Source of the DNA: Eledone cirrhosa
Taxonomy: Eukaryota
Direction of reading: 5' to 3'
Assembly: GCA_964016885.1 (NCBI GenBank)
Contig: OZ024740.1
Location: 18,786,001 to 18,850,000 of the forward strand
DNA length: 64,000 bases
Both the position numbers and the translations under genes were made by a program. This document shows positions 46,342-47,620 of the stretch, piece after piece. The notes under the pieces were generated by a model. The model did no database searches, was not told the DNA's origin, and saw only the letters and a list, made by a program, of their open reading frames with translations. How positions within the stretch are numbered: the stretch's first letter is position 1; each line of letters starts with the position of its first letter.

Positions 46342-46578
46342 TAAAACTCTACTTCTGTATTGAGTACCCTTTTCTGTCAAACGTCAATCACATACAGATA
46401 TATATATATATATATATATATATATATATATATATCTGTATGTGGTATTTTCTTCGGGGTTATAAGAGGCTTAGCTCTGTTTCTCGACCGTTATATCGCG
46501 TGACTATCTCCTCCTCCGCCTTTTGGGATTCTTTCTCACGTCGTGTAGACGCGTTCTTGAGACTAGTAAAATGAGGTA

Positions 46579-46668
46579 TCCTCTTGATAAGTCGGCAGAC
46601 CTCGCAAGGACTCTATACCTTTATGATATATTGTTTTTGTTTATGCCACGAAACTACGTAGTCGAGGA
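46579..46668 (+). ncRNA. Type I hammerhead-like motif, U3-A8 core variant (copy 1)
   Basis: UCCUC-UUGAUAA-GU(C)GGCA...UGCC-AC-GAAAC-UACGUA-GUC^GAGGA. Stem III is the palindrome ACUACGUAGU. Confidence 0.72.
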
Positions 46669-47173
46669 ATTTAGGAGCAGTTTAGGTATGATACATTTTA
46701 TTACTAATTATATCTAAATGTTTCTTCTCTCTTCATAATGTATTTTTAACTCTGATACTGGTTCAGTCTAGTTCAACTGAATTGGTCTGTCCCAGTCATT
46801 CATTGAGCAACATCGGTGAAGTTGGCACCCTTAACTCACAGTTGGGTGCGGATGCATTCATGTATATATGTGTATGTCCGCATGTATCTGTGTGTTTCTA
46901 AATATATTGTTAATAACTCCCTCTGGTCGAGCAATCTTTAAAGTGTGGGGACAGCTGGAAAACTTCCATTACTCATACTTCTCGCCTTCTTCACCACCTA
47001 TTCTGCGGCCTCGATATAAATACCCCCTCCGCCTCCGTGGTATTTTCTTCGGGGTTATAAGAGGCTTAGCTCTGTTTCTCGACCGTTATATCGCGTGACT
47101 ATCTCCCCCTCCGCCTATTGGGATTCTTTCTCACGTCGTGTAGACGCGTTCTTGAGACTAGTAAAATGAGGTA

Positions 47174-47263
47174 TCCTCTTGATAAGTCGGCAGACCTCGC
47201 AAGGACTCTATGTCTTTATGATATATTGTTTTTGTTTATGCCACGAAACTACGTAGTCGAGGA
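47174..47263 (+). ncRNA. Type I hammerhead-like motif, U3-A8 core variant (copy 2)
   Basis: Same as 46579-46668, offset by 595 bp. Confidence 0.72.
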
Positions 47264-47620
47264 ATTTAGGAGCAGTTTAGGTATGATACATTTTATTACT
47301 AATTATATCTAAATGTTTCTTCTCTCTTCATAATGTATATATATATATATATATATATATATATATATATATATATATATGTATATATATGTGTGTGTGT
47401 GTGTGTGTGTGTGTGTGTGTATGTGTGTGTGTGTGTGTGTGTGTGTGTGTGTGTGCGTGTGTGTGTGTGTGTGTGAGTGTGTGTGTGTGTGAGTCTGTGT
47501 ATGTATGTCTGTGTGTGTGTCTGTGTATGTGTGTGTATATGTGTATGTGTGTGTGTGTATGAGTGTGTGTGCATGTGCTTGTATTGAAAGTGTGTTAAAA
47601 AAGGTTATAAGTAGACTTAC

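Follow-up and report, generated by a model that had tools for sequence, protein, structure and literature searches.

A non-coding 595-nt hammerhead family of Eledone cirrhosa with a U3-A8 core and a Penelope-like insertion footprint

Metazoan non-LTR retrozymes are described as non-coding units joined head-to-tail, each with one type I hammerhead and a short palindromic stem III, in genomes where Penelope-like elements (PLEs) co-occur (PMC7229834; Li, Clavereau and Pollet, 2026, 10.64898/2026.07.22.740005). These papers regard PLEs as the likely agents of retrozyme mobility but do not demonstrate it, and a circular template is proposed in PMC7229834. PLE insertions are recognized by pseudo-LTRs, arms in inverted orientation, a one-end tail, and targeting of TA (PMC8557442), and the anole PLE is reported to cut both strands at AT-rich DNA and to start reverse transcription at two internal sites (PMC11167929). 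According to the same study, PLE insertion in vitro did not depend on hammerhead cleavage. Natural covariation to U3-A8 in the hammerhead core, with earlier in vitro activity cited, was reported by Perreault et al. (2011; PMC3088659), where U3-A8 stands as an accepted natural form, and Cervera and de la Pena (2014; PMC4209133) linked ≈1,300 U3-A8 motifs to the PLEs of S. mansoni. The U3-A8 core is thus not new, having been published for both natural and Penelope hammerheads.

We analyzed a 64-kb stretch of the E. cirrhosa genome (the window) that contains, at 46442-47338, two repeats carrying U3-A8 hammerheads. We conclude that this locus very probably belongs to a young non-coding family of metazoan non-LTR retrozymes in which each 590-595-nt unit contains a single type I hammerhead with U3-A8, and that a borrowed Penelope-like reverse transcriptase (RT)-endonuclease likely inserts its copies into (TA)n microsatellites. 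The copy number, the tandem and back-to-back layout, the two fixed 3' ends, the fixation of U3-A8, and the conservation of the ribozyme across subfamilies are demonstrated properties of this family. The 595-nt unit lies within the 51-972 bp range given in the preprint (10.64898/2026.07.22.740005). By contrast, it exceeds the 170-400 nt circles described for metazoan non-LTR retrozymes and has a U3-A8 core and a long stem II.

The S. mansoni Cercyon hammerheads described in PMC4209133 likewise have U3-A8, a 5-bp stem I, an enlarged stem II, and a palindromic stem III suited to dimers; the 595-nt family differs from Cercyon in being young, non-autonomous and tandem, in having a real stem III, and in a possible stem I-stem II pseudoknot. 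With EN+ PLEs it shares partial-tandem pseudo-LTRs, inverted 5'-truncated arms, a one-end tail, TA- or AT-rich targets, and, on the 3' side of the hammerhead, two internal positions at which RT would start (PMC8557442; PAc, PMC11167929). However, the unit lacks an ORF, and its end spacing, or tail, is 165 nt compared to the 30-40 nt given for EN+ PLEs in these two sources. A narrow literature search on octopus hammerhead retrotransposons did not return the 595-nt retrozyme family, which we regard as a new family within a known class, the metazoan non-LTR retrozymes, and as most likely moved by PLE proteins.

Repeats and hammerheads of the 46442-47338 locus

The initial annotation reported 302-bp direct repeats 595 bp apart. 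This was confirmed by comparison of 46442-46743 with 47037-47338, which are offset by 595 and differ at 4 positions, two of them private to this locus. The element lies on the plus strand and comprises 1.5 turns of the 590-595-nt unit, head-to-tail. The first repeat (46442-46743) represents unit positions 1-302, with a 5' boundary that is ambiguous within 46442-46445 (GTG is common to the flank fold-back). It is followed by the non-coding remainder of the unit (46744-47036), which includes family end site B near 46908, and by the second repeat, or pseudo-LTR (47037-47338), whose 3' limit is family end site A, directly followed by a (TA)n tract (47339-47390). The (TA)n target tract at the 5' junction (46389-46444) contains an 11-nt flank fold-back (46389-46399 with 46434-46444). 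Six-frame translation of the unit gave short open frames only. The 302-bp "LTR" is the overlap that remains once copying begins at site A and passes one full unit; the repeats have this length because the copying start point sets the overlap.

Each repeat contains one type I hammerhead. In the first (46579-46668), stem I is TCCTC/GAGGA, U3 is 46584, A8 is 46589, and cleavage after GUC is predicted to follow 46663; in the second (47174-47263), the predicted cut follows 47258. Both read TCCTC-TTGATAA...GAAAC-TACGTA-GTC-GAGGA and contain a Watson-Crick 3-8 pair, GAAA, G10.1-C11.1, A15.1-U16.1, an NUH site, and stems I to III. The UUGAUAA core, intact stems, and GUC site previously annotated in both repeats were present as described, and a doubly cut RNA is predicted to span 595 nt. 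Stem II is long, with 58 nt separating the core halves; it begins at G10.1-C11.1 and has one bulged C and an internal loop. The palindrome ACUACGUAGU lies directly 5' of C17 in each hammerhead. Stem III is 3 bp, and its loop completes the 10-nt palindrome ACTACGTAGT (46653-46662 and 47248-47257, plus strand), giving 3 bp in a monomer and 10 bp in a dimer. Two loci of an older subfamily (4 copies) have ACTGCGCAGT instead, where two bases have changed and the stem III palindrome is preserved. In the structural model these bases would be in the loop of a monomer but are paired in a dimer, and the double change is of the kind that a dimer would require.

Folding predictions were computed for several contexts. 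When one hammerhead was folded in isolation, constraining it to the active structure gave -17.8 kcal/mol, near the minimum free energy (MFE; -18.9), and the MFE cofold of two isolated hammerheads was the dimeric ribozyme (-51.5 vs 2 x -18.9 kcal/mol). Addition of flanks to the single hammerhead reduced stem I probability from 0.69 to 0.01. In the equilibrium fold of the 897-nt element, stem I probability was ≈0 in both hammerheads and the two palindromes were paired (0.73-0.86). The circular unit is predicted to fold well (z=-4.8 vs 40 shuffles); in this fold a long hairpin precedes each of the two end sites on the 5' side, and the ribozyme is blocked. A 5-bp pseudoknot between stems I and II is possible on the plus strand (46573-46603), in which GAGGU (46573-46577) would pair with ACCUC (46599-46603) of the stem II internal loop. 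These two segments are 90% and 97% conserved in the old subfamily compared to 58-65% in the flanks and distal stem II; no covariation was seen, and GAGG could also pair with CCUC of stem I.

A TATA-like box, TATAAATA (47015-47022, plus strand), lies 22 nt before the second repeat and varies within the family (TATGAATA in 21 loci vs TATAAATA in 18). The annotated position just upstream of the second repeat was correct. The box sits between the two hammerheads, and therefore the doubly cut 595-nt RNA could not be driven by it at this locus. The locus is likely unable to yield a doubly cut RNA unless it is read through from upstream.

A relaxed hammerhead scan of the 64-kb window returned these two motifs and three further sites, a weak minimal motif at 15029 and two that resemble chance matches. 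The motif near 15029 (≈14975-15037, minus strand) is a minimal C3-G8 hammerhead-like sequence with an 8-bp stem I, CUGAUGA, and a palindromic AT-rich stem III, and it is probably a decayed fragment of another family. Rfam gave 58 matches in window 44000-50000 at E<=5, with the hammerhead family absent; its miRNA matches were rejected as fold-back and microsatellite noise. Elsewhere in the window there are a long array of a 37-bp G-rich minisatellite with strong GC skew (28000-45700), three copies of a ≈109-nt SINE-like repeat (47825-48138 and 49341-49449), and fold-back pieces between TA tracts (45963-46059, 46217-46303, and 49522-49875) that are possibly short two-armed insertions of other families.

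Retention of the U3-A8 pair among genomic copies

An exact 26-mer across the U3-A8 core matched the 3.0-Gb genome 5820 times, compared to 0 for the reversed-pattern control. Family motifs with another base at position 8 numbered 14, all with U3; another base at position 3 occurred in 12, and C3-G8 in 0. The variant-core patterns were 23 and 16 letters long, and ratios to 5820 are accordingly rough. Because young copies share U3-A8 by descent, we examined an older subfamily that is ≈72% identical and was gathered by similarity over 601 nt, using 29 of 30 loci after one overlapping locus was dropped. U3-A8 was present in 44 of its 45 copies. Conservation was 99% in the core, 95-98% in stem I, and 96% at the base of stem II (82% on its 3' strand), compared to 58-61% in the flanks. 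Thus, U3-A8 is kept as a pair and is fixed in the family, with the ribozyme conserved across subfamilies.

These counts bear out the expectation that genomic copies would retain U3-A8 as a pair; the contrary case, a CUGAUGA family consensus with U3 and A8 changing independently, was absent. The initial annotation also read C3U plus G8A as compensatory rather than as decay. Maintenance of the pair supports this reading, but the implied change within the element does not stand, since the pair is family-wide and already published. The concern that a CUGANGA search would miss the motif proved justified: for purposes of counting, CUGANGA descriptors and Rfam overlook ≈5,800 motifs in this genome.

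Other hammerhead-like motifs with a short stem II were also collected. A hand count of the first 100 of 226 matches (control, 29 matches) gave 82 U-A, 11 C-G, 5 C-A, and 2 U-G, with U3-A8 commoner than C3-G8. Pairing between positions 3 and 8 gave a Fisher p of 2e-9 in these 100, whose rows are non-independent. This result shows several families of each paired type and implies no rate. Another large family of U3-A8 hammerheads, whose stem I is long and bulged, was encountered at loci L133-L162, with a PLE-type RT frame just upstream in L137.

End sites, TA tracts, and the Penelope-like control

A DNA similarity search (39 of 1338 candidates scored) gave at least 102 matches, mostly 98-99% identical and often at 595-bp tandem spacing. 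We mapped 96 loci, 58 sampled by position along contig 1 and 38 taken as best matches, a sampling that biases counts to core-bearing or full-unit copies. They contained 106 full units of 585-607 nt, in tandem, with one type I hammerhead each. The longest arms reached 7.5 units. Among 162 arms, 83 ended at site A (unit position ≈302), 72 at site B (≈467), and 7 elsewhere. Sites A and B are 165 nt apart, and 146 of the 155 arm ends at these sites ran into TA. The 3' ends are fixed, and the 5' ends are scattered over the whole unit. Arms lay on one strand only in 29 of the 58 position-sampled loci, as they do at 46442-47338. Of 58 back-to-back insertions, 55 had one A end and one B end (A/A, 1; B/B, 0; A with another end, 2). 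Contigs from four of six sequencing runs of unrecorded kind, from 3 studies, include the unit and its head-to-tail joint; ends, strand, and circles are unreadable in them.

The initial annotation had offered an LTR retrozyme or a tandem PLE pseudo-LTR as alternatives, and the arm structure upholds the second. A non-autonomous LTR element (a plant-type LTR retrozyme or TRIM) would have hammerheads within true LTRs, and the locus does show two ≈300-bp repeats around ≈290 bp, near plant retrozyme sizes; as in the elements described in PMC4918200, two ≈300-bp hammerhead repeats would release a ≈600-nt RNA. However, those hammerheads are type III and their elements have a primer binding site (PBS), a polypurine tract (PPT), and 4-bp target duplications, none of which the 595-nt family shows. 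Its hammerhead is type I, a PBS is absent after repeat 1, and pyrimidine-rich sequence precedes repeat 2. Moreover, the variable 5' boundary, the arrays and inversions among copies, and the back-to-back arms all argue against true LTRs. We rejected the LTR reading, which we regard as very improbable: a TG...CA end, a PBS, a PPT, and a visible 4-bp duplication were all absent, a short duplication within (TA)n being undetectable either way.

The PLE interpretation was assessed against an intact autonomous PLE of the same genome, which encodes a 1217-aa protein with RT, a CX4CX2C linker, and GIY-YIG, has a 4.1-kb period, and has copies that are 99% identical in the part searched. Pfam did not recognize the PLE proteins in the parts scanned; they were therefore named by their RT and GIY-YIG motifs and by layout. 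In 18 of 18 back-to-back insertions of this control, picked from the match list, one end was short and one long, in TA. The two ends lie 249-254 and 297-312 nt past the element's own C3-G8 core, a spacing of 43-58 nt compared to 165 nt in the retrozyme family. We conclude that the rule of one short and one long end is a footprint of PLE machinery in this genome, because the control shows it in every case. A very young, abundant example of this autonomous PLE, with an Asn-rich insert in the 1217-aa frame and a 4117-bp tandem period, lies at L277 (G000:C1:307339000-307348990), and a 121-nt fragment of the 3' end of the 1217-aa element, 95% identical, is present in the window at 49154-49269.

A satellite spread by DNA-level amplification or DNA rolling circles, with a relic hammerhead, could also give array-shared variants through local amplification or gene conversion. 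We consider it improbable, since copies are dispersed over many contigs, fixed 3' ends in TA are strand-specific and accompanied by variable 5' ends, the footprint equals that of the autonomous PLE, and the ribozyme is conserved above its flanks. Neither of the two PLE families compared could be linked to the unit as its partner: significant shared sequence was not found in the C3-G8 family with ≈900-aa frames or in the 1217-aa family (the highest local score was 42, and shuffled sequences reached 44), and the latter also differs in end spacing. The pLTR homology to a partner described for metazoan non-LTR retrozymes was likewise not found in these two families, nor was an autonomous element sharing unit sequence found beside the 29 old-subfamily loci.

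Two mixed loci were observed. At L117:5593-6870, a copy of the 595-nt family lies in a TA tract edging a different PLE with a canonical hammerhead. At L243:6112-6114, PLE RT sequence is fused directly to an inverted retrozyme arm without a site B end. This apparent chimera was set aside because both outer ends are of the short type and the PLE is abundant near TA tracts; a later deletion fits equally well.

The template and its implications

We propose that transcripts of several units would cleave themselves after GUC, with the palindromic stem III probably joining them as dimers. It is comparably likely that a PLE protein cuts both strands of the TA tract and that each DNA end then primes cDNA at one of two unit positions, ≈302 or ≈467. 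We give even weight to the further step, in which ligation often yields a 595-nt circle as the template and arrays of near-identical units result. The locus at 46442-47338 would be a one-armed product primed at site A, with its 5' end 22-25 nt past the start of the TATA-like box.

A serious competitor, to which we assign an appreciable but minority share, retains the same element and PLE machinery, but here long arrays would be transcribed into linear RNA of several units that serves uncut as the template, with a slow or late hammerhead and no need for a circle. Many arms span an intact cut site, and folding of the full element disfavours stem I. The clustering of 5' ends at unit positions 1-33, directly past the TATA-like box (16 of 154), and the use of unprocessed RNA by PAc, as reported in PMC11167929, point the same way. 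The enrichment of 5' ends just past the cut site was mild (16 of 154, uncorrected p=0.012, in a window picked after viewing), and larger 5'-end peaks were at TA-like stretches. The 4 differences in 302 bp between the repeats of our locus are above those of typical arrays; they favour a linear template and fit a single circular one poorly. The cited preprint reports that 8 of 9 Xenopus retrozyme dimers were without cleavage and 1 of 9 was cleaved (10.64898/2026.07.22.740005).

Against the linear template, the ribozyme is strongly conserved. Moreover, one locus has arms 6.7 and 7.5 units long that share one rare variant throughout, which requires either a circular template or a source array that is both long and homogeneous. 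A rare variant was common to all units in 11 of 21 multi-unit loci. The mean difference was 1.1 nt for units of the same arm, 0.8 for units in the two arms of one locus, and 3.2 from the nearest other locus (median difference between loci, 8). The near-identity of units within a locus fits one template per insertion, such as the proposed circle, and also fits a homogeneous long transcript or later conversion. Six rare variants recur in all six units of L185; five are A>G when read on the sense strand, a pattern that template RNA editing would leave. A-to-I editing scars were set aside as evidence, with 7 A>G vs 3 T>C shared variants (p=0.044), 5 of them from one locus.

For the retrozyme family copied by PLE machinery, we advance one more specific model tentatively, and rather doubt it: a PLE dimer would use a single circular RNA to prime the two ends left by cutting one TA tract. 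The two priming sites, each flanked by a hairpin, would be separated by 165 nt, far beyond any PLE tail described, and a pseudoknot-braced U3-A8 hammerhead would cut only as a dimer. The mechanistic value of the family is that it shares its end rule with an intact PLE found alongside it in this genome, and that the exact RT start sites proposed and the dimer and pseudoknot predictions can be tested by simple assays. If the model is true, dual priming on a circle would be a genome-scale footprint of circle-copying, so far only proposed for retrozymes, with start sites that could be tested in vitro.
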